In this document: positions 2,683-55,454 of the stretch, one piece after another | Numbering within the stretch: the first letter of the stretch is position 1 | Layout of the letters: each line of letters starts with the position of its first letter | IMG/VR virus record: IMGVR_UViG_2529292913_000008 | Direction: 5' to 3' (one strand) | DNA length: 64,000 bases | Source of the DNA: a virus | Taxonomy: Duplodnaviria; Heunggongvirae; Uroviricota; Caudoviricetes | Made by a program: the position numbers and the translations under genes | The notes under the pieces: generated by a model | Told to the model about the DNA's origin: nothing | The model's database searches: none | The model's input: the letters and a program-made list of their open reading frames with translations, nothing else

Positions 2683-3875
2683 TAATCATCATCCCCGTAT
2701 AGCTTGCGGGTAACTTCTTCGTCTTCCTCCTCGTCTTCGTCCAGGTCTTGTTCCAGCCATGGGTCGTTTGATACACCTTCAGTATCAACATCTCCATAAC
2801 CGCCTGTATCAACGATATCGGCGATTTCTTCCCTACGCTGCTCAATCCACAATGCGGCATCGGCGCGGCGGTTGGCGGCCCGTTCTCGCGCAACTTTGTC
2901 CAGATCTTCAAGAGAAGGGCCACCGACGGCTGTTTGCCTTTCCTCATCATCGGTATTGGTCTTAGGAGCACGCAGATCGGCTTTGATTTGCTCCAGCATC
3001 AGGGGCGGCACTTTCCCGCCATGCGCCTCGATGAATTCAGCTGCTTCCAGCACTGACCAGTTATTTTCACGCTTTCGTTCGTATGCCAGCTTAACAATGC
3101 CAGCTTGCCCCATAGATAAAGCGTGCTTTTCCGCCTCCCGGCTTTCTTTTCGATAGTTATTCCGGATGCTGTAAATGGTGTTGATCAGACTGCTTATCTG
3201 CGCGGAACAGCTGTTTAGCATGCTCGCGATACGGTATTCAGGCGGAGTTCCTTCATCATCGTCTTTTTGCTGATCGCGAATTTCCTGCACCAGGCGAATA
3301 CACGTATCCCTGGCGTTCTCCAGCATAAGGAGATGAGAGAGAGACTTTTCCAGAAGAGTGGTTTCCAGAACATCAGCCCCGGACCGACGCAACATAGCGC
3401 GCGCGGCCTTCCGCGCTTCAACGTTATCTATCAGGTAATCGCCAGCTTCGAATTCAAAGCGTTCACCATCATCATCCAGGGTGTCGCGTTCCAGGCGATC
3501 ACGTAAGGTCCGGCGGGCGCGGGTGATCACGTCATGATCATCTGAACGATCATTTATGCGCTTATTTTGGCGCTTCGCATTCTCGACTGCGGCACTGACA
3601 ACGGCATTAACTCTCTGTTTTTCCGCTATTTCAGCCGCAATATGATCACCTGCATGTTGATCATTAGAGTGATCAATGATCATGCTTTTTAGTGGCTTCC
3701 TGACTGGCTTATTTGGCTTGCGGCTGTCCGCAGTCCTGGTGTCTTCTTTGAAGGCACGGAGATAACGACGTGCGGTATTAGGGTTAAGATTAAACTCGGC
3801 GGCATACTGTGCGATGGTGTAACCACCATCTCGCGCCAGGCGAGCAAAATTCTTTTTGTGATCGTCCCAGGTCAC
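2682..3875 (-). CDS. pacA: Terminase small subunit (PacA-like)
   Basis: 397 aa, basic/HTH-like N-terminus and very acidic C-terminus; immediately upstream of pacB; contains the hexamer clusters typical of the P1 pac site. Confidence 0.75.
3520..3685. other. pac: pac site: two clusters of TGATCA hexamers (Dam GATC sites) inside pacA
   Basis: TGATCA at 3524, 3535 (plus cGATCA at 3548) and at 3643, 3658, 3670, 3677. A 3+4 arrangement about 100 bp apart is as described for P1 pac. Confidence 0.6.
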
Positions 3876-6358: not shown

Positions 6359-6430
6359 AAACACCTCGTGTACTCGTTATGTGTACACAATTATAAACTT
6401 CACAGGCATAAAGCACCAGCACTTTGCAGC

Positions 6431-6820
6431 TTAAATAACCGGACAATCATCAAATTCCCCACTTCGGGCATCATTGATGACATGAGTGATCACACCAAAA
6501 ACAGCATTACTGCCCGTGTAACCATCGTCATCTACTGGTAACGCCTCTTTCTTCCCGGTGCTTAAATCCTCCAGGTGCTGGCGCGGATACTTTCGGTATC
6601 TCTTTATGCGATATTCACCCTCCATAGCGCACACAAGCAGCGAACCATCAACTGGAGTAAGCGAAGAATCAACCACCAGCAAAGCACCCTGCAATATTCC
6701 CTCGCGGTGATGGCTGTCTGCCGCCCGCATGAAGTAGGTCGCTGATGGATGCCTGATTAGTTGCTGATCAAGAGAAATTCTGCTTTCAACATAATCCGCC
6801 GCAGGAGAAGGGAAGCCCAT
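6431..6820 (-). CDS. humD: UmuD'-like S24 peptidase (HumD)
   Basis: 129 aa with an S24/LexA-like C-terminal fold; LexA box 20 bp upstream of the start; position upstream of phd-doc as in P1. Confidence 0.75.
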   Translation of the reverse strand: MGFPSPAADYVESRISLDQQLIRHPSATYFMRAADSHHREGILQGALLVVDSSLTPVDGSLLVCAMEGEYRIKRYRKYPRQHLEDLSTGKKEALPVDDDGYTGSNAVFGVITHVINDARSGEFDDCPVI

Positions 6821-6859: not shown

Positions 6860-6994
6860 TACATTAAAGAGACACCTTTGGTGCAAACGCGTTATGTACA
6901 TCAACCACCGCAGATGATTTTGTGCGCTTTGCTACTATTCATCACCAACGGATCAGCGTAACCTCGTTGCCAATCAGTTAATAAGGAATTAGCT

Positions 6995-7528
6995 ATGCCT
7001 GCCCGCATTCCTCTCGATCCTGTATTGCCCAAAAATTTTGACTGCACTCCTAACGAGAAACGCTCTAAAGCTCAGTTGGACGCCTGGTGGGACCATCCAT
7101 ATGGGGTTACACAACCTGACGGGAAAATTGTAGTTTATTGTCTGAATGGTGGGGCGTGGGACCGTCCATCCGTGCTTGGTTTGGCAAATAACTATGATGA
7201 AGCCTGTGAACTTGCCGAAAGACAGCAGGCAAGCTGGGTAAAAACACGTTATGAACCGACATTCATGTTTTCAAAAGAACCGCCATTTATACTGGCGAGG
7301 ATGCCGCAGCGACCGGATCATCAACAAGAAATTGTTGCTGAATTTTCCTCTAGGGATGAGATGAATCTCTTCTCATTAAAGCAGGAAGAAAGGGATCGCG
7401 TCGAAGTGTCTCCAACTCTCGACCACAACCGGATGAACCTGGCCCAACTCGCCTGGTACAGCAAAGAATTAGAGATGTCTATTGCCCGACTTGAAAACGA
7501 AAAAGCCGCTATCCAAGCCCAGCACTGA
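6995..7528 (+). pseudogene. LexA-regulated hypothetical gene (lxr-position) truncated by IS10
   Basis: 177-aa ORF whose last codons run into the IS10 end at 7525. Deleting IS10 plus one duplicated copy of the target restores an in-frame continuation of 18 codons (8863-8917), about 195 aa in total. Confidence 0.5.
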
Positions 7529-8853
7529 GAGATCCCCTCATAATTTCCCCAAAGCGTAACCATGTGTGAATAAATTTTGAGCTAGTAGGGTTGCAGCCAC
7601 GAGTAAGTCTTCCCTTGTTATTGTGTAGCCAGAATGCCGCAAAACTTCCATGCCTAAGCGAACTGTTGAGAGTACGTTTCGATTTCTGACTGTGTTAGCC
7701 TGGAAGTGCTTGTCCCAACCTTGTTTCTGAGCATGAACGCCCGCAAGCCAACATGTTAGTTGAAGCATCAGGGCGATTAGCAGCATGATATCAAAACGCT
7801 CTGAGCTGCTCGTTCGGCTATGGCGTAGGCCTAGTCCGTAGGCAGGACTTTTCAAGTCTCGGAAGGTTTCTTCAATCTGCATTCGCTTCGAATAGATATT
7901 AACAAGTTGTTTGGGTGTTCGAATTTCAACAGGTAAGTTAGTTGCTAGAACCCATGGCTCCTTTGCCGACGCTGAGTAGATTTTAGGTGACGGGTGGTGA
8001 CAATGAGTCCGTGTCGAGCGCTGATTTTTTCGGCCTTTAGAGCGAGATTTATACAATAGAATTTGGCATGAGATTGGATTGCTTTTAGTCAGCCTCTTAT
8101 AGCCTAAAGTCTTTGAGTGACTAGATGACATATCATGTAAGTTGCTGATAGGTTTCCAGTTTTCCGCTCCTAGGTCTGCATATTGTACTTTTCCTCTTAC
8201 TCGACTTAACCAGTACCAACCCAGCTTCTCAACGGATTTATACCATGGCACTTTAAAGCCAGCATCACTGACAATGAGCGGTGTGGTGTTACTCGGTAGA
8301 ATGCTCGCAAGGTCGGCTAGAAATTGGTCATGAGCTTTCTTTGAACATTGCTCTGAAAGCGGGAACGCTTTCTCATAAAGAGTAACAGAACGACCGTGTA
8401 GTGCGACTGAAGCTCGCAATACCATAAGTCGTTTTTGCTCACGAATATCAGACCAGTCAACAAGTACAATGGGCATCGTATTGCCCGAACAGATAAAGCT
8501 AGCATGCCAACGGTATACAGCGAGTCGCTCTTTGTGGAGGTGACGATTACCTAACAATCGGTCGATTCGTTTGATGTTATGTTTTGTTCTCGCTTTGGTT
8601 GGCAGGTTACGGCCAAGTTCGGTAAGAGTGAGAGTTTTACAGTCAAGTAATGCGTGGCAAGCCAACGTTAAGCTGTTGAGTCGTTTTAAGTGTAATTCGG
8701 GGCAGAATTGGTAAAGAGAGTCGTGTAAAATATCGAGTTCGCACATCTTGTTGTCTGATTATTGATTTTTCGCGAAACCATTTGATCATATGACAAGATG
8801 TGTATCCACCTTAACTTAATGATTTTTACCAAAATCATTAGGGGATTCATCAG
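7525..8853 (-). mobile_element. IS10 (IS4 family), 1329 bp, with 9-bp target-site duplication AGCCCAGCA
   Basis: Ends CTGAGAGATCCCCTCATAATTTCCCC (7525) and CTGATGAATCCCCTAATGATTTTGG (reverse complement, ending 8853); direct repeats agcccagca at 7516-7524 and 8854-8862. Confidence 0.9.
7538..8746 (-). CDS. IS10 transposase
   Basis: 402 aa, full length, recognised as the IS10/Tn10 transposase sequence. Confidence 0.95.
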   Translation of the reverse strand: MCELDILHDSLYQFCPELHLKRLNSLTLACHALLDCKTLTLTELGRNLPTKARTKHNIKRIDRLLGNRHLHKERLAVYRWHASFICSGNTMPIVLVDWSDIREQKRLMVLRASVALHGRSVTLYEKAFPLSEQCSKKAHDQFLADLASILPSNTTPLIVSDAGFKVPWYKSVEKLGWYWLSRVRGKVQYADLGAENWKPISNLHDMSSSHSKTLGYKRLTKSNPISCQILLYKSRSKGRKNQRSTRTHCHHPSPKIYSASAKEPWVLATNLPVEIRTPKQLVNIYSKRMQIEETFRDLKSPAYGLGLRHSRTSSSERFDIMLLIALMLQLTCWLAGVHAQKQGWDKHFQANTVRNRNVLSTVRLGMEVLRHSGYTITREDLLVAATLLAQNLFTHGYALGKL

Positions 8854-8917
8854 AGCCCAGCATGAAGTAGTTCTGAACCGGATTAGAGAAATGCAAAACG
8901 ATAACAGGGGATTTTGA

Positions 8918-9280
8918 ATGGCTAAAATCGAGTACCATCGCGATCGCGGTAATTACCTGGAAATATACGATCATGAATCTCTTAACGATATCAACGATGC
9001 GTTATATGAATACTGTGAAAAAATGAGCATCACAGATGCACCTGACGCATTTGTCGAGCTACCGGTATATCTCCGCGACATCTATGCAATACGGACGCCG
9101 CCCGTATCGGTAATTCACATTGGCTATGTCCGCCTGTCCATCGAAGAAGATGAAGATCGTTATATCGTACGCCACTATACATTGGACAGAAAAGAGCTTC
9201 CCAATGAATGGAACATGAGTAATTTCTACAACGGTGAATATGGCTTAAAACCCGCTATGAATGGCGCGGGCATTGCGTAA
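8918..9280 (+). CDS. Hypothetical protein
   Basis: 120-aa ORF starting at TGAATG overlap with the reconstructed end of the IS10-interrupted gene; no recognisable motif. Confidence 0.45.
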   Translation: MAKIEYHRDRGNYLEIYDHESLNDINDALYEYCEKMSITDAPDAFVELPVYLRDIYAIRTPPVSVIHIGYVRLSIEEDEDRYIVRHYTLDRKELPNEWNMSNFYNGEYGLKPAMNGAGIA

Positions 9281-9291
9281 TAGCCTAACAA

Positions 9292-9543
9292 CTATTCTGT
9301 TTTCTGATATGCCGGATCGTTCCCTTTTGGCAACTGGAGGCTTAACTGCCGGTAGTGCCGTAGACGTTCCATGAAATAGGTGCGCAGATTCTCTGGTTGC
9401 TCGCGGGCTACCTGTTCAGCTATGACAGGTATGTTCAATCGCTCTTTGTAGGCAACCCCCCTGGCAGCCAGGTCAACGTTAACTTTATTCCTTTCTTCCT
9501 GGCTTTTGGCTGCTATGTTCCATTCGTTCATATTAAATCCCAT
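9292..9543 (-). CDS. hot: DNA polymerase III theta-subunit homolog (Hot)
   Basis: 83 aa; the [35 protein letters not shown] stretch is clearly homologous to E. coli HolE (theta). Confidence 0.75.
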
Positions 9544-9999
9544 CCAGAATAATTGAATAACGGCTATTATTTAGTCGCCGCAATATCTTCAAAGTTTTTT
9601 TCTCACCCCATTGCTTTTTGCGCACAGCTTATCTGGCTTGCGGTGCGCCGAAATGTAAATTCGCCTTCAGAGTTATCCACAAAGTTATGCACTTGCAACG
9701 AGGCCATTTTCCTCATACTGTGTTTGCACACACAGGAAATGGATATTTTATTAATTGAATTTTATTAAATAATAATGATAAGGAGAAAATTTGAGATGTA
9801 ATCATGACATTAATAGATAGGGCCTGCATTACAGGCCCCAACTACATCAAGGAATTCACAGTTCCCTGATTTTTATACCGAAAACATGTGCCGTAAGTTC
9901 ACGTTAACGACTTTCTTTCACCGAATCCAACTATATAGAGGTTGGGTTTCTACGTCAACGTGAGAGCACACAGCTTTACATTTGACGAGGATTACCCTG

Positions 10000-10137
10000 A
10001 TGATTGTATTTTTTCAGTTTCTAAGTGCATTTTTAAATGCGCCTGTTCTTAGCCAAGTGCTGGCGATTGTCTTCATCGTGGTTCTGATATGGTTTTTCAA
10101 GTCAGTGATAAACAGAGGCGTGCGCTGGCTTATTTAA
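10000..10137 (+). CDS. Candidate small hydrophobic membrane peptide (45 aa)
   Basis: ATG 9 nt after a GAGG RBS; MIVFFQFLSAFLNAPVLSQVLAIVFIVVLIWFFKSVINRGVRWLI; below the ORF-track length cutoff; speculative. Confidence 0.25.
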   Translation: MIVFFQFLSAFLNAPVLSQVLAIVFIVVLIWFFKSVINRGVRWLI

Positions 10138-10675
10138 TGTCGCGCTGAGATATTAATTCCCTTGCTGTTTAACCATTTTTTGTGTGTGCTGGTGAGCGTG
10201 TGAAGGCTCAATTTGTTGCCCACCAGTATTTACTATTTCTAAGCTCCACAGTGTCACTTCCGCACAAACAACTTAGCGCGGAATCAGTATTCGGCCCAAG
10301 ATGTAAAAAGCCAACCTGCGTTATGGTTCGCATTTCCAAATAGTGTTCTGAACGCCCGTGCCGGGCGCGAGATGTGGATTAGCGTTCGCGCTATGCTGAT
10401 ATACGGCTTTAGACTTTCCATATTGCTGACAGGCTTTATCTGCGGTTTTTTGCAGGCTATCCAGCCCATACCAGCCATCAGACTGGATGCTTACCTTTTC
10501 ACCGTCATTGTATTGCACCATCGCGAACCCAAACATAGCTATCATCGCACCGACAATACCGCTTTTCCAAAAAGCTCTAATTAGGTCATTCGTTGCCTAA
10601 TGTCCGAACTGCTAAAGCATCAAAGTTGCTGTAGAATCACCGCCAATTACTTAAGCCTGAAATAAGTGGAAGAAA

Positions 10676-37055: not shown

Positions 37056-37844
37056 ATGCTGGAAAAAGACTACCAGTTATCCGCATATAAAAAATTGGCC
37101 GCCGCCGGTGGGATGAAAACACCTGGTGCCATAACATCGGCACGAAACAGTGCTAACACAGCAAAACTGCTTGCAGAAGAATTGACCGGATTAATTCTGG
37201 ATACAATTGTCTATCCCGACACTATTACCAGCTATGTTTCAACGATCAGAACAACCGCAACCGGTTTAACGAATATTGGAGGGCTGGCAACTCAGCACGC
37301 GGACCTGTTGGCTGGTTATGCTGATCTGTCAATGCTCCTTCAACTCGATATTGGTTGGGATGTTTACTGTCGTGCTAATGAGCGAGAAGTTTCAGAACTG
37401 CCGATCTCTATTGCCATTGGTGACGCGACTACAACGAAATCGCTTGAGGACGCTGTAAATGCGCTTAATGCGTCGAGTTTAGTCGCTGCTATGGGGGACG
37501 TTAACCAGACCCTTAACACAGGCTCAGGAAGCTCGTCAGGCTCTGATTCAGGTGGCGGCGCAGTCACTCCCCCACCAGCACTGACAGAACAACAAGTTGA
37601 AGCACTGAAGGAAGCTACTGAACAATTTGGTGCTTTTTTCGACCAGACAACAGTACCGGTAGCAGCATTGCAACAGCAGTATGAACGAGCGAAGGAAAGC
37701 GCCAGCGTAGCCATAACTGCTTATAACCATGCTATCGGAACCGCGCTGGCGGAAGCATCAGCAAATAAGGCCAGCACCGCCAGCGCAGTCGCAGCTTTGG
37801 TTCCTGATTCTGTTCTTGATGAATTAAACAAGGCGACACTTTAA
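37056..37844 (+). CDS. Hypothetical protein with Ser/Gly-rich linker
   Basis: 262 aa from the internal ATG preceded by an AGGAG RBS. Confidence 0.5.
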   Translation: MLEKDYQLSAYKKLAAAGGMKTPGAITSARNSANTAKLLAEELTGLILDTIVYPDTITSYVSTIRTTATGLTNIGGLATQHADLLAGYADLSMLLQLDIGWDVYCRANEREVSELPISIAIGDATTTKSLEDAVNALNASSLVAAMGDVNQTLNTGSGSSSGSDSGGGAVTPPPALTEQQVEALKEATEQFGAFFDQTTVPVAALQQQYERAKESASVAITAYNHAIGTALAEASANKASTASAVAALVPDSVLDELNKATL

Positions 37845-37883
37845 CAAAGGACTTCACAGATAATTTTTCTTCAGGAGGAAGAA

Positions 37884-38306
37884 ATGTCGTTTTTTTCAAC
37901 GTTAAAAACAGCTTTGTCTTTGAAGGAGAAACTTGCTGTTACTGGTGTTCTTGTCCTGATTTGCGCACTTGTTGGTGCTGGGTTTGCATGGGAACGTTAT
38001 CAGTTAAAGCAAGCCTTGGAAAAAATTGGCAGCCTTGATCAGGCTGTTAAGGAGCGCGATAAGTCAATCATTGATCTTAACCAGACCATTGAGACGATGA
38101 ATAAAGCGGATCAACATTTTCACAGCCAGGAAGTGAAAAATGAATCAGAACAAGCGAAGTATGCAGACAGACAAATGGAACGAAAAGCTGAAGTTCAGAA
38201 ACAACTGGTTGCGTCGGGTAGTGTTCGCCAGCGCATTCCTGTTGACACTCAGCGGTTGCTCCGGGAGTCGATCAGCGAATTTAACGCCGACGCCGACAAA
38301 GGTTAA
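37884..38306 (+). CDS. Rz-like inner-membrane spanin (i-spanin)
   Basis: 140 aa with an N-terminal transmembrane segment and a charged coiled-coil periplasmic domain. Confidence 0.55.
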   Translation: MSFFSTLKTALSLKEKLAVTGVLVLICALVGAGFAWERYQLKQALEKIGSLDQAVKERDKSIIDLNQTIETMNKADQHFHSQEVKNESEQAKYADRQMERKAEVQKQLVASGSVRQRIPVDTQRLLRESISEFNADADKG

Positions 38307-38472
38307 TCACCCTGCCCCCAAAAGTGCATTTATGTGCAGGATGCCAGAGTTTAGCAGTGAATATTTTGATGATCTGCCAGCCTATATCCTTGATACAGAA
38401 ACGATGCTGATGGGGATTAACAGGAAGAATCGCAACGTTAATGATTACAACCGCGCTATCAGCGGTAACTAA
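38140..38472 (+). CDS. Rz1-like outer-membrane lipoprotein spanin (o-spanin), overlapping the i-spanin out of frame
   Basis: AGGAAG RBS; signal peptide with lipobox LSGC followed by a Pro-rich mature region (TPTPTKVNHPAPK); starts inside the i-spanin gene in another frame and extends beyond it. Confidence 0.5.
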   Translation: MNQNKRSMQTDKWNEKLKFRNNWLRRVVFASAFLLTLSGCSGSRSANLTPTPTKVNHPAPKSAFMCRMPEFSSEYFDDLPAYILDTETMLMGINRKNRNVNDYNRAISGN

Positions 38473-38483
38473 AAGGGATTTTT

Positions 38484-38876
38484 ATGTCTGATAAAGTAAC
38501 AGTAAAGCAAACTATCAACAAAGCGACTTCAATCTACAAAATTGAGCAAATCACTGTTGGCAAGCCAGGATCTGAACAATACCGTCGTGCTTTCGAGCTT
38601 GCCGATCAGCTTGGTTTAAAACACCCGGATTGCATTGAGCATGTATTTCCGACCTATGCTGATGAGCAATGTACTCATGTTCTTACCGAAGAGGATTTTT
38701 TCTGCACTGAAGAACGAGAAGGAGTTGATCGCTGCATTGGTGTGATTTGCTCTTCAGTGAGTTATGAGTTATTCCCTAATGTCCATGAAGATGGTGGTGT
38801 TGGATACCAATTCCTGTACGAAGGCGATGAGCTTAAATGTTATGAACATGGTCTTCTTATCGAGAGCGTAGAATAA
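38484..38876 (+). CDS. Hypothetical protein (upfA-position)
   Basis: 130-aa ORF immediately upstream of oriR. Confidence 0.5.
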   Translation: MSDKVTVKQTINKATSIYKIEQITVGKPGSEQYRRAFELADQLGLKHPDCIEHVFPTYADEQCTHVLTEEDFFCTEEREGVDRCIGVICSSVSYELFPNVHEDGGVGYQFLYEGDELKCYEHGLLIESVE

Positions 38877-38914
38877 TACGGCTTCCTTCCAACCGGCTTT
38901 ATTGGCCGGTTTAT

Positions 38915-39134
38915 TCAACTTATCCACAGCATAGATCCAATAAACAGATCCTAAAGAGAACCTAGGAAGATCCAAAGAAGATCCCGGATCGCTGTAAGCC
39001 GCGCCATTTCTGGCCTGAAATGGGATCAACATTGACTATACGCGATTTTATGTTGACTGTGCACGATTTATTGTTGACTGCACGCGATTTATTGTTGACT
39101 ATACGCGACAGAAACATTGACTGTACGCGATTTT
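38915..39134. repeat. oriR/incC: DnaA box, GATC cluster and five 19-bp RepA iterons
   Basis: TTATCCACA at 38921-38929; five AGATCC-type GATC sites; iterons (A/G)TTGACTNNNCGCGA at 39031, 39052, 39073, 39094 and 39116 (21-bp spacing). Confidence 0.8.
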
Positions 39135-39210
39135 AGAGCCTGACTATTCACAGTTGTTGATAACTGCAATCCAGATGACGCCAGGCCGCGCCACATATGG
39201 AGAAACCACG

Positions 39211-40095
39211 ATGCCGGAAGAAAATAAAGGCTTCCTTAGCGTTGAAGAAGTTGCAGGAAATACAGGAGAAATCCACAGCCTGAAACCCAATAACAATAGC
39301 ACTATACAACCCATCGCTTTGTTGCGCTTAGGTGTGTTTGTGCCAACCTTAAAATCTACCAATGTGGCACTACGTCGCGGATCGTCAGTTACTACAAACA
39401 CAACGAACGCAACCGAAGAACTATCAAGCCTCAAAATTGTTGAGCAGGAAGGCTATGAGGGAATTGAAATACATGGTCCACGCCTGGATATGGATACTGA
39501 TTTTAAGGTGTGGGTGGGCATAACCTCCGCGTTGTTTGACTACGCACCTGATGATGACGGCATAATCACCCTGCCATTCTCCGAGTTTGCCGATCGATGC
39601 GGCTATCCACGTAAGCGCCTTTCAAAGGCGTTCCGTAAAAGTATTGATGACTCTCTGACACGCATTCAGCAGACAGTTGTCAAATTCCGCTTCCCGGCGG
39701 CAAAAGGTCATCTCAATAACATTAACGTCAACTTGTTGGCATATAGCAGCCTGAATACCGAGCTTGATGTTATCGAGATCCAGCCGCAGAAACAGCTATC
39801 TGAACTTTACTATGTTGACTATAAGCGAATCCTGAAGCTGAAGATGCTGGATAAGCTCGGGCGCAAAGAGACGGCCAAGGTGCTGTATACATTCTTTGAG
39901 GCTCTACCCGCCAACCCGGCACCTGTCAGCATTGAGCGCCTTAGAGCAAGGCTTAATCTCAAATCATCCGTTAGCGTGCAAAATAGCGTTATCAGAAAAG
40001 CTATGAAAGATTTGGAAGCTATTGAATATCTTAAATTTTCAGAGATAAAAAACGGCAGGAAAATCGGCTTCCAGATCCATAAGCGCAATCCATAA
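39211..40095 (+). CDS. repA: Plasmid replication initiator RepA (P1 family, divergent)
   Basis: 294 aa from the ATG at 39211 (GGAG RBS); flanked by iteron arrays on both sides. Confidence 0.7.
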   Translation: MPEENKGFLSVEEVAGNTGEIHSLKPNNNSTIQPIALLRLGVFVPTLKSTNVALRRGSSVTTNTTNATEELSSLKIVEQEGYEGIEIHGPRLDMDTDFKVWVGITSALFDYAPDDDGIITLPFSEFADRCGYPRKRLSKAFRKSIDDSLTRIQQTVVKFRFPAAKGHLNNINVNLLAYSSLNTELDVIEIQPQKQLSELYYVDYKRILKLKMLDKLGRKETAKVLYTFFEALPANPAPVSIERLRARLNLKSSVSVQNSVIRKAMKDLEAIEYLKFSEIKNGRKIGFQIHKRNP

Positions 40096-40096
40096 T

Positions 40097-40356
40097 ATTG
40101 ACTATATGCGATAGCGAGAAGTTGACTATAGGCGACATTCGTTGACGCTGGTGGATTTTTGCTGGCGTCAATATTCTGCAAGTCGCTATTGAGATGGCTT
40201 TTAGGGTCATTTCATCGCGTATAGTCAACGTTTCTCCCGACAATATCTTACATAGTCGATTTTTGGTGGAGTTAAATCGACTACAGTCAACTTTTGACTG
40301 TAGTCACATCGCGCATAGTCAACTATTCACATTAACTTTCGCGCATAGTCAACATT
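40097..40356. repeat. incA copy-control iteron array (about nine iterons, both orientations)
   Basis: Repeated TTGACTATANGCGA and TCGCGNATAGTCAA motifs directly downstream of repA. Confidence 0.75.
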
Positions 40357-40387
40357 TGCGCGGTTCTCATCAAGCAGTGGTATTGAT

Positions 40388-40915
40388 ATGCAAGAAGAGA
40401 AACAACACTACCTCTACGTTCTGGTGCCGGAGAACGGAGATACTTTTAAAATCGGCATTTCATGTGGTCCATTGGCACGGTTTAAAGGGCTACAAGTGAG
40501 TCCCGATTTTGCGCTTTCACGGGTCTATCGTGGTACGCGTTTGGCAATGGTTAATCTTGAGCGGGCTTTACACGCAACCTTTTTCCCCTGGAATGCGCCG
40601 TGGGAGAAAAGCGCAGGTGGCGGGCATACTGAATGGTTTACACGAGAGTGTCTTGATAAGGTTTTGGCTCATATCGAATATCTAAATGATATGTGGGGAG
40701 GGATTCTCGAGCGCATTAAGTCGAATGATTTACTTCAGCGTCCAGTAGATGCTGCTTGCTCTTTCGAAAAAGAGCTGGATGTTACTTCTATCGTGACTTT
40801 CAAAGATGACGCAGGAATGAGGGACGTGGCTTATGTCTCCATATCTGGCTATGAACCGGACGCGATCCGCGCTCAGTGTGAATTGCTGAAAGCAATGTTT
40901 ATGCTTCGGACTTAA
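40388..40915 (+). CDS. T5orf172/GIY-YIG-like domain protein
   Basis: 175 aa; N-terminal YLYVLVPENGDTFKIGIS...TEWF resembles the T5orf172 motif set; sits between incA and parA. Confidence 0.5.
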   Translation: MQEEKQHYLYVLVPENGDTFKIGISCGPLARFKGLQVSPDFALSRVYRGTRLAMVNLERALHATFFPWNAPWEKSAGGGHTEWFTRECLDKVLAHIEYLNDMWGGILERIKSNDLLQRPVDAACSFEKELDVTSIVTFKDDAGMRDVAYVSISGYEPDAIRAQCELLKAMFMLRT

Positions 40916-40936
40916 TATCCCTGGGATACAGGGCGG

Positions 40937-41197
40937 GTGTGCTTCCCTATGGAAGAGTTAACCGCCACCATTGATTCCCAGCTTTACCACGATAATCCAG
41001 AGAAGTTTTTTAGCCTTTTAGCCGGTAATGGGCTTAACTGTGTGTCCGGGCTGGGGCGAAGTAGAATCCAACATGCCTCGCTCTTCGGTCCCATCTTTTA
41101 CGATCGACATGGGTACTTTGAGGCTGAACTTCCGGCGCTTACGCGTGCTATAGATACTATCGATTTCGAACGATTATTCGCTGCTCTTAGCAAATAA
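40937..41197 (+). CDS. Hypothetical small protein
   Basis: 86-aa ORF following the T5orf172-like gene, with a terminator right after. Confidence 0.4.
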   Translation: MCFPMEELTATIDSQLYHDNPEKFFSLLAGNGLNCVSGLGRSRIQHASLFGPIFYDRHGYFEAELPALTRAIDTIDFERLFAALSK

Positions 41198-49143: not shown

Positions 49144-49170
49144 AAAGCTCCTTCGGGAGCTTTTTTATTT
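49144..49170 (+). terminator. Rho-independent terminator
   Basis: aaagctcc-ttcg-ggagcttt followed by ttttattt. Confidence 0.7.
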
Positions 49171-49228
49171 GGAGAGGAAAGGGTGCATTGAGGATACCTG
49201 ACACACGAAGAGTGGCGGGGATCTCTCC

Positions 49229-50567
49229 CATAAGCGCTAACTTAAGGGTTGAACCATCTGAAGAATGCGACGCCTCGGTGCCTCGTTAAGACGATGCCTC
49301 GCGTTCTTCAATTGCGTTTTGTAGGCTGTCAGGGATACTGTCCCACGAATGGCCACCTGTAAGCTCCAGATGACCATTTTTGTTATTCTCCACAACGAGT
49401 TAGTTCTTCTTTTCGGATCCGGCACTTCTGGGGGGGAAATCCAGCGATGGCTGGATTATGTCGTCAATTAAAAATGCGGCGAGTAGATTAGCAAATATCC
49501 ACGCTTTCGCGAGTTCAGGTTCCTTTGCACGCAAAGCATCCAGGTGCAGCAAACTTTTGAGCCGCTTAAAAGCCAGTTCAATTTGCCATCGCAGACGGTA
49601 ACAATCAGCCACTTGCTCTGCTGAATATTCATCTTCCGGTAATGATGTTAGCAATAGCACATGGCCCGCTGCTTCCAGCGTTTCCGCCTGAACTACTCGT
49701 CCTTTTCGACGATTCTCGCTGAGCAGTCGGGTTTTACTGATTAATGCTTTTTCGGGAGGAAGTGATACGGCAATGAGACGTGCCGGAAAGGGAGCTCCGG
49801 CTTTTTTATTACCTGAATTGCCTATCATTACAGTGGTTTCACCGTTCTTACCGCAATCCAGCCCGCGCAGAAAACCCATCATGTCAAAGCGCATTCCTTC
49901 TGCAGTTAACCAGCGCAATCCTCGCCAGTGAACCCGGACGATATAATCAGCTTCTCCAAAAGCAAGTGAGCGGATACATTCGGGACGCGAACCGAATCCC
50001 CGGTCAGCAATGCGTATCTCGTCTGCCGTTTGCGCAAATCGGTCCAGCCGTTCAGCGTCTCTGCTGTCGGTTAGCTCAAAATCAGTGAACTGACAGGTAT
50101 GAGGATCATATCCCATATGTAGTCGCCATTCAGCGCTGCCGCCCCCGGGCGCACTGATTGCTGTTCCATCGACAAGACGCAATCTCTTTCCGCTTGTACA
50201 ACCCGTAACTGCGGCGCGTACAGCAAGTGTTTGTGCGGCAAGTATGCCAAACCAGTCGGCGGCATTCCGCAGCCGCTTCAGGAGAGCCACGTCAGATAAT
50301 GTTGCAACGTCATGGAGCTGAGCCCATGCAGTGACTTCACGTAATGACATCCCCCCGGGGCCGTAAGCCAGCCCCAGACGTAGCAGAGTTGCAGCATCAC
50401 GAATTTCGCGGCGGCGGGTTAGAGCCCCGGCATTACGTGCCGAAGTATCCAGTTCTTCGGGCTTACCAATATGGGCCAGAATTGCTGACCAGTTATCGTG
50501 AGAGTAATTCATCGGCACGTTAAATCATATCAGGCGTAATACCACAACCCTTAAGTTAGCGCTTATG
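49229..50567 (-). mobile_element. IS186 (IS4 family), 1339 bp, with 10-bp target-site duplication GGATCTCTCC
   Basis: Terminal inverted repeats CATAAGCGCTAACTTAAGGGTTG at 49229 and its reverse complement ending at 50567; identical flanks at 49219-49228 and 50568-50577. Confidence 0.85.
49400..50518 (-). CDS. IS186 transposase
   Basis: 372 aa, recognised as the IS186 transposase (MPMNYSHDNWSAILAH...). Confidence 0.9.
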   Translation of the reverse strand: MPMNYSHDNWSAILAHIGKPEELDTSARNAGALTRRREIRDAATLLRLGLAYGPGGMSLREVTAWAQLHDVATLSDVALLKRLRNAADWFGILAAQTLAVRAAVTGCTSGKRLRLVDGTAISAPGGGSAEWRLHMGYDPHTCQFTDFELTDSRDAERLDRFAQTADEIRIADRGFGSRPECIRSLAFGEADYIVRVHWRGLRWLTAEGMRFDMMGFLRGLDCGKNGETTVMIGNSGNKKAGAPFPARLIAVSLPPEKALISKTRLLSENRRKGRVVQAETLEAAGHVLLLTSLPEDEYSAEQVADCYRLRWQIELAFKRLKSLLHLDALRAKEPELAKAWIFANLLAAFLIDDIIQPSLDFPPRSAGSEKKN

Positions 50568-50589
50568 GGATCTCTCCCCGCCAGGTCTC

Positions 50590-50745
50590 TTACCTTTCAG
50601 ATTCGTAGGCTGTGAAGACAGTGACCTCCGTCTGGCCGGTTCGGATTCGTACCTCGCAGAGGTCTTTCCTCGTTACCAGTGCCGTCACAATGACGGTTAA
50701 ACAGATGACGATCAGAGCGATTAATATCGCTTTATGCTGCTTCAT
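50590..50745 (-). CDS. Hok/Gef-family membrane toxin
   Basis: 51 aa, MKQHKAILIALIVICLTVIVTALVTRKDLCEVRIRTGQTEVTVFTAYESER, near-identical in pattern to E. coli HokC/Gef; below the ORF-track cutoff. Confidence 0.75.
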   Translation of the reverse strand: MKQHKAILIALIVICLTVIVTALVTRKDLCEVRIRTGQTEVTVFTAYESER

Positions 50746-50926
50746 AGCCTGCTTCTCCTTGACCTTTTGGTCGGTAAGAGGCTAATCTACGTATGCTAAG
50801 CATAGATATGGCCTCAGATTAATGTTAAGCGTCTTGCAGGACGCGTAATGTTATCTGGGGCTTTCTTCTATCTGCTTTTCGGGTAATGCCTGAAGCAGAT
50901 AGCCTCAAGCACCCGCAACGATTGTA

Positions 50927-51174
50927 TCAATGTCTGGCTTTTTTTCTATAGAAATCACCTGGAAGGGTGAATATCCACATCAGAAGAAATGTTGCAGCAA
51001 ACATGATCCCTAATGGCCAGACCGCGCCAAAGAAAATCCATACTAAGATCTCCTCTGCTTGTTCTTTGCGGTCGATATCGACAAGCATTTTTCGGCTGAT
51101 CATGTATACACAGAAGCCAATACAAACATATCCTGCAAAAGCGATCGCTAACTGTAAAAAATCAGATTGCATCT
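50927..51174 (-). CDS. Small membrane protein
   Basis: 82 aa from the internal ATG with a GAGG RBS; two hydrophobic segments. Confidence 0.4.
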
Positions 51175-51222
51175 CCGACCTCAAACCGAAAACGCCAGGT
51201 GACTCCAGATTAGAGCAATCTA

Positions 51223-54932: not shown

Positions 54933-55454
54933 ATGATTCTTATGTCTAAAAAGTATACTTTATGCGCTCTTGTTGTATCTGCAATTCTTCTTTCTGGGTG
55001 TCAATCTAGCGGTGCTGATTATGCTGCCGATGTTTATGATACCGCTCAATTGAATTCGAAGCAGGAAACAAAGACAGTCAATATTATCTCTGTGCTTCCA
55101 GCTAAAGTGAAAGTTGATAATAAAGCTAATAAAGAAGCGGCACAGACATTTGGTGCGGTACTGGGAGCTGTTGCTGGGGGCGTTGCCGGTTATAATGTTA
55201 AAGGCACATCGACACTGGGTGCTGTAGCTGGCGGTACTGGTGGTGCGGCTCTTGGTGCAGCGGCTGGTTCTTTGGTTAGTGATAAAACAATTGTTGAAGG
55301 TGTTTCACTGACTTATAAAGAAGGAACTAAGGTGTTCACTTCAACTCAAGTTGGTAAAGCATGCCAGTTTACAACGGGGCTTGCTGTGCTTATTTCAACT
55401 AAAGATAATGAAACTCGAATTCAGCCAAATGCTACTTGTCCAGAAAAGAAATAA
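54933..55454 (+). CDS. Glycine-zipper lipoprotein (SlyB/Pcp-like)
   Basis: Lipobox LSGC; Gly/Ala-rich GAVAGGVAGY...GAVAGGTGGAALGAAAGS repeats. Confidence 0.6.
   Translation: MILMSKKYTLCALVVSAILLSGCQSSGADYAADVYDTAQLNSKQETKTVNIISVLPAKVKVDNKANKEAAQTFGAVLGAVAGGVAGYNVKGTSTLGAVAGGTGGAALGAAAGSLVSDKTIVEGVSLTYKEGTKVFTSTQVGKACQFTTGLAVLISTKDNETRIQPNATCPEKK

Follow-up and report, generated by a model that had tools for sequence, protein, structure and literature searches.

An overlapped ppfA/mlp gene pair near the replication origin of a P1-like phage-plasmid as a probable two-component spanin

Two overlapping genes upstream of the replication origin

We analyzed a 64-kb stretch of viral DNA (IMG/VR record IMGVR_UViG_2529292913_000008; hereafter the window), in which open reading frames (ORFs) were called in all six frames, and focused on two overlapping genes at 37884-38472 that are orthologs of ppfA and mlp of phage P1. 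The ppfA ortholog lies at 37884-38306 on the plus strand, starts with ATG and encodes 140 amino acids. Sequence inspection placed its Shine-Dalgarno motif, AGGAGG, at 37873-37878 (+), and the same motif is marked in the P1 table of Kongari et al. 2018 (PMC6139136). The mlp ortholog occupies 38140-38472 (+) and encodes, from an ATG start, a precursor of 110 amino acids with a mature part of 71. Its Shine-Dalgarno motif, AGGAAG (38128-38133, +; sequence inspection), falls within ppfA codons Q82-E83-V84; divergent relatives carry it as AGGAGG, and Q82 and E83 of PpfA are invariant. Both ORFs of the original prediction were thus found, each with an ATG and a ribosome-binding site.

The mlp gene begins 256 nucleotides (nt) inside ppfA in the +1 frame and extends 166 nt past the ppfA stop, so that 167 nt (38140-38306, +) are read in both the ppfA frame and the mlp +1 frame. 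By the definition in PMC6139136, the architecture of the pair is overlapped, not embedded. An o-spanin gene (for the outer-membrane lipoprotein subunit) that is embedded in, overlaps or adjoins its i-spanin gene (for the inner-membrane subunit) out of frame is the arrangement that Summer et al. 2007 and Kongari et al. 2018 use as a criterion for spanin pairs, and it was observed here and is conserved in all relatives.

The region 36000-41000 of the window is 95-97% identical to phages P1, P7, RCS47, SJ46 and their relatives, and it also matches 737 Escherichia and Salmonella plasmids, most of them non-mobilizable. In the alignment with RCS47, the entire window is colinear in reverse orientation and spans coi/c1 to the baseplate genes. 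Because of this colinear map and the identity to P1, P7, RCS47 and SJ46, we assign the window, on its sequence, to a Punavirus-type (P1-like) phage-plasmid.

The divergent nearer set of relatives comprised Cronobacter phage JK004 (L003) and the metagenomic or genomic contigs L004, L005 and L007, with PpfA identities of 57-62%; these relatives, of Cronobacter, Salmonella and Klebsiella type, keep the pair. Two remoter lineages (L015 and L017), obtained via a profile search of 1.84 billion representatives, retain it at 49% and 33% Mlp identity. Every divergent relative carries a PpfA-like ORF of 140-151 amino acids and a +1-frame ORF of 108-111 amino acids with a lipobox (variants LSAC, LNAC and LSSC), and in the nearer relatives the +1-frame ORF starts no more than 3 nt from the equivalent spot. 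The gene order upfC-upfB-ppfA-mlp-upfA is kept across the relatives, with the exception of L005, which is without upfA.

PpfA has the features of an i-spanin

PpfA contains a single hydrophobic segment at residues 17-35 (codons 37932-37988, +; maximum 19-residue Kyte-Doolittle mean 2.48), and the remainder of the protein is charged and rich in Q, E and K. An AlphaFold2 model (13 homologs, mean predicted local distance difference test score 72) showed a long helix at residues 13-110 that includes the hydrophobic segment, a break at 111-119 and a second helix at 120-138 (codons 38241-38297, +). In the heptad test, the periplasmic residues 37-75 (codons 37992-38108, +), which are helical in the model, had hydrophobic residues at 73% of the a/d positions compared to 11% elsewhere (P = 0.0005 vs shuffles), whereas the same shuffle test gave no significant periodicity for residues 76-110 or 120-138. 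The original prediction had described a transmembrane coiled-coil protein; the transmembrane domain (TMD) is confirmed, and the coiled coil is supported for the membrane-proximal half only.

The C-terminal helix at 120-138 is the best-conserved part of PpfA in the columns of the homolog alignment, and by analogy with lambda Rz/Rz1 it may be the contact site for Mlp. The only cysteine, C27, is inside the TMD, and the periplasmic part has none. PpfA thus shows one N-terminal TMD followed by a mostly helical, coiled-coil-like periplasmic domain, as expected of an i-spanin, and its sequence suggests an N-in/C-out topology, that is, a type-II-like inner-membrane protein.

Mlp has the features of an o-spanin

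The signal peptide of Mlp consists of a positively charged n-region, the h-region VVFASAFLLTL and the lipobox L-S-G-C (38248-38259, +), which was recognized by a regular-expression match together with the h-region. Cleavage would fall between LSG and the cysteine, Cys40 (codon 38257-38259), and the +2 residue is Ser. Cys40 is invariant in 9/9 aligned o-spanins, P2 LysC among these. Under the established lipoprotein rules, Mlp would be processed and acylated at Cys40 and, because the +2 residue is Ser and not Asp, would be sorted to the outer membrane via Lol; a lipobox Cys without Asp at +2 is what an o-spanin is expected to have. ORFs with a lipoprotein signal numbered 3 in the six frames of the window, compared to 0.08 ± 0.27 expected from 100 shuffles, and this rarity indicates that the lipobox ORF of Mlp is more than chance.

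Mature Mlp carries a Pro/Thr-rich linker, TPTPTKVNHPAP (38284-38319, +), that aligns with PPAPTPVIVPNACP of P2 LysC. Prolines make up 6 of its 71 residues (8.5%), four of them in this linker; lambda Rz1 has 10 in 40 (PMC6139136). The Pro-rich lipoprotein that had been predicted to start inside the first gene is therefore recognizable by its lipobox and its out-of-frame position, and is Pro-rich only modestly. The linker is followed by a conserved core, AFMCRMPEFSSEYFDDLPAYILDT (38326-38397, +), which includes Cys66, the sole periplasmic Cys beyond the lipobox. C66, P69, D78 and L79 are invariant among the P1-like lineages and P2 LysC, and the nine-sequence o-spanin alignment as a whole has an invariant lipid Cys, Cys66, Pro69, Asp78-Leu79 and Leu90. 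A periplasmic Cys suited to a homotypic disulfide is accordingly present in Mlp, in the form of the invariant Cys66.

Both frames of the overlap are conserved

The window was compared, codon position by codon position, with the relatives whose PpfA is 57-62% identical. The DNA coding for PpfA alone showed a single-frame pattern, with identities of 0.35-0.56 at the wobble position and 0.61-0.78 at positions 1-2. Where the overlap begins, over Mlp residues 1-25, the pattern resembled that of this DNA, with a ppfA wobble identity of 0.28-0.36. Towards the 3' end of the overlap (alignment columns 331-423), identity rose to 0.77-0.90 at every codon position, compared to about 0.6 in single-coding DNA; this part encodes the h-region, the lipobox and the first 15 mature residues of Mlp and, in the other frame, the PpfA C-terminus. 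Beyond the ppfA stop, the variable position was the mlp wobble (about 0.5), and the other positions were at 0.82-0.90. Because the periodicity passes from the ppfA frame through dual constraint to the mlp frame, the comparison argues that both frames are translated and under purifying selection. It also backs the full 110-amino-acid mlp frame, at least from the h-region onward.

Public records and automatic calls often annotate merely a 3' fragment of mlp of 43-47 amino acids without the signal peptide and lipobox. Such truncated calls were found in RCS47 at 69191-69322 (L010 19191-19322), in L002 at 3333-3473, in L003 at 6373-6507, in L004 at 3049-3186 and in L007 at 6449-6589. The annotation of mlp is missing altogether in L005 and L008, and some records label both genes hypothetical. 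The overlapped o-spanin is systematically mis-called in databases, and gene callers are known to overlook overlapped o-spanins (PMC6139136).

Family searches and comparison with known spanins

Searches against PHROGs matched PpfA to phrog_89, 'Rz-like spanin' (E = 6.6e-23, residues 21-139), and to two more Rz-like PHROGs. Mlp matched phrog_30284 at 2e-74 and phrog_456, 'Rz-like spanin', at 6e-5; phrog_30284 is approximately Mlp's own family, so its annotation is partly circular, while phrog_456 is independent. Mlp and P2 LysC share 37% identity over 68 amino acids (pairwise E = 2e-8), which identifies them as distant homologs. Similarity of Mlp to lambda Rz1 was marginal (E = 0.008), with only the signal peptide and Pro region aligned. 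A search of PDB sequences with PpfA gave nothing meaningful. The profile search with PpfA returned 35 matches among the 1.84 billion representatives, indicating a narrow family; most were same-family fragments or coiled-coil repeats, and the three full-length remote relatives that were kept match Rz-like spanin PHROGs only. Matches P0083, P0087, P0090-P0092, P0094 and P0095 were disregarded as fragments or coiled-coil repeats.

The P1 pair is the closest known counterpart. PpfA of P1 (gp064) is 94% identical to that of the window (8/140 substitutions), and P1 Mlp (gp063) is identical at 71/71 mature positions, with all 5 differences in the signal peptide. At the nucleotide level the identity is 94.7%, and the order upfC-upfB-ppfA-mlp-upfA-oriR is shared, which places the pair in the 'P1' family of Kongari et al. 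2018. Both pairs encode 140 + 110 amino acids, with mlp starting 256 nt into ppfA in the +1 frame, and both have upfC-upfB upstream, upfA downstream and oriR adjacent; P7, RCS47 and SJ46 have orthologs too. The replicon (iterons and repA) of the window is of the RCS47/SJ46 type, unlike the P1/P7 type.

In the P1 reference record, ppfA (P1_gp064) is given as 'possible periplasmic function' and mlp (P1_gp063) as 'membrane lipoprotein precursor ... possibly involved in regulation of lysis', with 'Rz-like spanin' in RefSeq. According to Bednarek et al. 2022 (PMC9025707), the P1 spanin genes ppfA/mlp overlap partially, their operon is not linked to the remaining lysis genes (lyz, lydA/B), and Summer et al. 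2007 recognized them by their predicted features. The supplement of Kongari et al. 2018 (PMC6139136) lists P1 as 'ovl', with gp064 as the i-spanin (140 amino acids, a 104-amino-acid periplasmic domain, no periplasmic Cys, 'one in TMD') and gp063 as the o-spanin (110 amino acids, 71 mature, a 39-amino-acid signal, lipobox TLSG, one periplasmic Cys, LipoP cleavage at position 39). In the introduction of PMC9025707 and in supplementary file 6 of bioRxiv 10.64898/2025.12.28.696737, ppfA is named the o-spanin and mlp the i-spanin. Judged from the TMD of PpfA and the lipobox of Mlp, these subunit labels are reversed, and the Kongari 2018 table agrees with the assignment given here. The locus is an already catalogued P1 spanin pair in its normal genomic position, known rather than new. 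It has little importance beyond correct annotation, and its unlinked position is a textbook peculiarity of the scattered lysis genes of P1.

P2 LysB/LysC are likewise overlapped, with 141 + 96 amino acids and a 146-nt overlap compared to 140 + 110 amino acids and 167 nt here. Mlp and P2 LysC have in common the lipid Cys, a PTP-rich linker and the motif C-x-(M/L)-P. LysB/LysC sit within the lysis cassette Y-K-lysA-lysB-lysC, whereas the pair of the window is outside such a cassette. Lambda Rz/Rz1 resembles PpfA/Mlp in combining an i-spanin with a TMD and a helical periplasmic domain with a small outer-membrane lipoprotein o-spanin encoded in the +1 frame, and by analogy PpfA/Mlp may likewise fuse the membranes after wall degradation. 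However, Rz1 is fully embedded in Rz within the S-R-Rz cassette, whereas mlp is overlapped and unlinked; mature Mlp has 71 residues compared to 40 for Rz1 and is much less Pro-rich; Rz has two periplasmic Cys (PMC6139136) and PpfA has none; and sequence similarity is confined to the signal peptide. T4 PseT.3/PseT.2, likened here by published features (PMC6139136), also have spanin genes away from the holin and endolysin genes and an i-spanin without periplasmic Cys, with cysteines in the o-spanin only; they differ in their separated architecture and in having two o-spanin cysteines.

ppfA/mlp as a spanin and the alternatives

On orthology, protein features, selection on both frames, retention across lineages, family similarity and the literature listing, we consider it highly probable that ppfA/mlp is a functional two-component overlapped spanin of a P1-like phage-plasmid. 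The original prediction of an overlapped Rz/Rz1-like spanin pair agrees with the +1-frame geometry, the TMD and the lipobox, and the literature says the same for P1. As a spanin, PpfA would be anchored in the inner membrane with an elongated helical periplasmic domain, and Mlp, acylated and sorted by Lol, would reside in the outer membrane. The C-terminal part of PpfA would form a complex with Mlp, probably stabilized by a homotypic disulfide via Mlp Cys66. The peptidoglycan mesh would keep the complexes apart and let them accumulate harmlessly until the P1 holin and signal-arrest-release endolysin (LydA / Lyz) degrade the wall. The complexes might then collapse and fuse the inner and outer membranes, which would release the virions as the last step of host lysis.

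Several observations weigh against this interpretation. The activity of P1 PpfA/Mlp as a spanin has never been verified experimentally (PMC9025707). In a genome-wide CRISPR interference (CRISPRi) screen of P1vir plaques both genes were non-essential, with efficiencies of plating of 0.24/0.19 for mlp and 1.3/1.2 for ppfA; since spanin mutants plate under many conditions, we regard this result as uninformative rather than contrary. No spanin family was matched in Pfam-A at E<=1 by PpfA or Mlp, and no above-threshold family was found in Pfam-A or NCBIfam for PpfA, Mlp, UpfA or UpfB. The NCBIfam matches of PpfA to LysB (TIGR03495; 18.4 bits vs a cutoff of 92.75, E 0.002) and of Mlp to LysC (NF038368; 14.3 bits vs 27, E 0.033) were sub-threshold; being paired, though weak, they were also counted in favor of the spanin family. 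PpfA showed no significant similarity to P2 LysB by BLASTP or by hhalign of the PpfA alignment, and hhalign of that alignment with lambda Rz gave a probability of 1%. As to expression, the promoters predicted for ppfA in the P1 record, P1ppfA and P2ppfA, are all of the sigma-70 type, and the Lpa-type -22 box AAGTNACTT was absent upstream of the gene cluster, a weak negative because the motif comes from the single annotated promoter LP23. A generic scan for sigma-70 promoters and terminators gave nothing convincing upstream of ppfA on the plus strand. Expression timing is not critical for a spanin, since spanin complexes, on the lambda model, stay inactive up to wall degradation (PMC6139136, PMC9025707).

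The N-terminus of Mlp counts among these contrary points. Its signal peptide of 39 amino acids is unusually long, and Kongari et al. 2018 (PMC6139136) flag P1 gp063 as 'Too long signal sequence'. Over its first ~25 codons (38140-38214), mlp shows no constraint in its own frame; the length of the signal peptide is conserved, and the n-region sequence is free to vary in the mlp frame. The real start could lie downstream, for example at TTG 38209, with GTG or ATG at equivalent spots in relatives. These alternative starts showed neither positional conservation nor a Shine-Dalgarno motif in the window and the relatives. ATG 38140 appears to be the best mlp start, because its ATG and Shine-Dalgarno motif are conserved and the downstream candidates are not.

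The unconstrained first ~25 codons also bear on the view that only ppfA is real, the long +1 ORF being fortuitous and the true downstream gene the annotated ORF of 43-47 amino acids, which is all that RCS47, MH422554, JK004 and several metagenome calls annotate, without a signal peptide. We find this extremely unlikely. The ppfA wobble position is conserved at 0.84-0.90 in columns 331-423, compared to about 0.4 in the rest of ppfA. All lineages, even at 33% identity, retain the ATG and its Shine-Dalgarno motif, an uninterrupted frame and the lipobox Cys. Chance would yield lipobox ORFs about 40-fold less often, and an annotation gap at this kind of gene is a known failing of gene callers (PMC6139136). 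The hypothesis of a spurious mlp ORF was rejected on the codon-position conservation. The CRISPRi result fits a different proposal, that of a genuine but redundant or vestigial spanin which the P1 lysis system with its endolysin of the signal-arrest-release type can do without, as does the unusual complexity of that lysis system, with several holin-like proteins (PMC9025707). Purifying selection on both frames across genera, the invariance of the lipobox and Cys66, and the placing of the genes among the most conserved of 77 P1-like elements speak against redundancy, to which we give only a slight chance. In that survey of 77 P1-like phage-plasmids, mlp and ppfA were among 21 extremely conserved genes, and the repA-upfA segment was one of eight hypervariable regions.

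The location and the promoters of the pair would also suit an envelope module of the prophage state, expressed constitutively from sigma-70 promoters and acting, for instance, in the exclusion of superinfecting phages, in lysogenic conversion or as a link between the plasmid and the envelope. The pair has the C1-controlled dmt operon on one side and the repA/par maintenance region on the other, and lyz and lydAB are distant; the P1 record has P1ppfA and P2ppfA as its only predicted promoters for ppfA, and no Lpa -22 box was found upstream; and the CRISPRi screen scored neither gene as essential for plaques. However, each partner independently resembles spanin families, the +1-frame overlapped i-/o-spanin architecture is a spanin hallmark conserved in every lineage examined, and P1 has no other catalogued spanin candidate (PMC6139136 supplement). 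The T4 spanin genes too are unlinked to holin and endolysin (PMC6139136), and the upstream upfC is PAAR-like and presumably encodes a virion protein. We therefore judge an envelope module improbable in place of a spanin. Because there is no recognizable Lpa late promoter and only sigma-70 promoters are predicted, constitutive production of a P1-type spanin in the plasmid-prophage state is conceivable, with the protein either 'pre-loaded' in the envelope or given a second role in the lysogen, such as exclusion or envelope tethering. This we consider very improbable; if true, the linkage to the replicon would be more than a historical accident.

Genomic context of the pair

The same-strand cluster upfC-upfB-ppfA-mlp-upfA spans 36763-38876, between the divergent C1-operated dmt promoter region and a hairpin, AACCGGC-N7-GCCGGTT (38891-38911), just before the origin. 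Its first gene, upfC (36763-37047, +), is PAAR-like (phrog_281, 2.5e-30; Pfam PAAR_motif 26.0 bits vs a cutoff of 27). The product is presumably a tail-spike tip (virion) protein, which makes upfC an unexpected companion of spanin genes within a shared transcription unit. The function of upfB (36999-37844, +; phrog_1559, 1.3e-133) is unassigned, and its homologs begin at an internal MLEKDYQ. The last gene before oriR is upfA (38484-38876, +; phrog_1453, 2.4e-60), whose function is likewise unassigned. In the Klebsiella-aerogenes-type contig L005 (6423-6978), which has no upfA, the spanin pair directly abuts the origin and repA; the absence of upfA there with the pair kept implies that upfA is dispensable for whatever the cluster does.

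Downstream of the hairpin, oriR contains the DnaA box TTATCCACA (38920-38928), a cluster of five GATC sites (38932-38997) and five iterons with 21-bp spacing (39030-39130), with more iterons after repA, which ends at 40095. The window iterons are of the TTGACTnTACGCGA type and, with repA, of the RCS47/SJ46 type; the P1 iterons are TGTGCTG-type. When 38860-39160 of the window was compared with L001 5861-6161, the homology to P1/P7 covered upfA, the DnaA box and the GATC cluster and ended at ~39025, where the iteron array starts. This end point suggests the left junction of a replicon swap, between the host-factor and the initiator-specific parts of the origin.

The original prediction had put the pair next to the replicon, upstream of oriR. 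That position was confirmed, though it is not immediate, with upfA lying between. The sequence comparison indicates a conserved Punavirus gene order, with no demonstrated link to replication. A location in a lysis cassette, typical of spanin genes and not obligatory, was not found: the neighbors are upfC, upfB, upfA and repA. As also predicted, the pair stands apart from holin and endolysin genes; mapping on RCS47 places lyz/lydD and lydA/lydB/lydC outside the 64-kb window, and lyz, lydA, lydB and further holins are present elsewhere in the RCS47 genome, in agreement with the expectation that a two-component spanin belongs to a phage of a Gram-negative host with a holin and an endolysin. The corrections to the prediction are minor, namely the mild Pro-richness, the intervening upfA, and a layout that is standard for Punavirus rather than an oddity of this element.

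Other genes in the window

A complete type I restriction-modification system (10676-16735, +) encodes HsdM (518 amino acids), HsdS (422) and HsdR (1058). RCS47 lacks the ~10-kb segment (6898-16811) in which this system is found, and a DDE transposase gene at 7538-8746 (-) adjoins the system. Another DDE-transposase ORF of 372 amino acids (49400-50518, -) lies in a ~2-kb segment, 49166-51188, that is not in RCS47 and is probably an insertion sequence near the repL/kilA side of the structural genes.

Two further lipoprotein genes were observed. At 30387-31214 (-), a 275-amino-acid SPFH/Band-7 lipoprotein has the lipobox LTGC with Asp at +2, the classical inner-membrane retention signal; its gene is the only further one for a large lipoprotein in the vicinity of tRNA/ban. 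A predicted lipoprotein of 173 amino acids (LSGC), encoded at 54933-55454 (+) in the interval that separates the structural genes from the immunity region, has a weak, sub-threshold TraT-like match (23.1 bits vs a cutoff of 31). In the repA-parA interval, a GIY-YIG / T5orf172-like gene at 40388-40915 (+) encodes 175 amino acids, compared to 269 in the RCS47 homolog. Its product matches the PHROG profile of 269 positions only over 1-175, and the gene may be truncated or frameshifted in this element.

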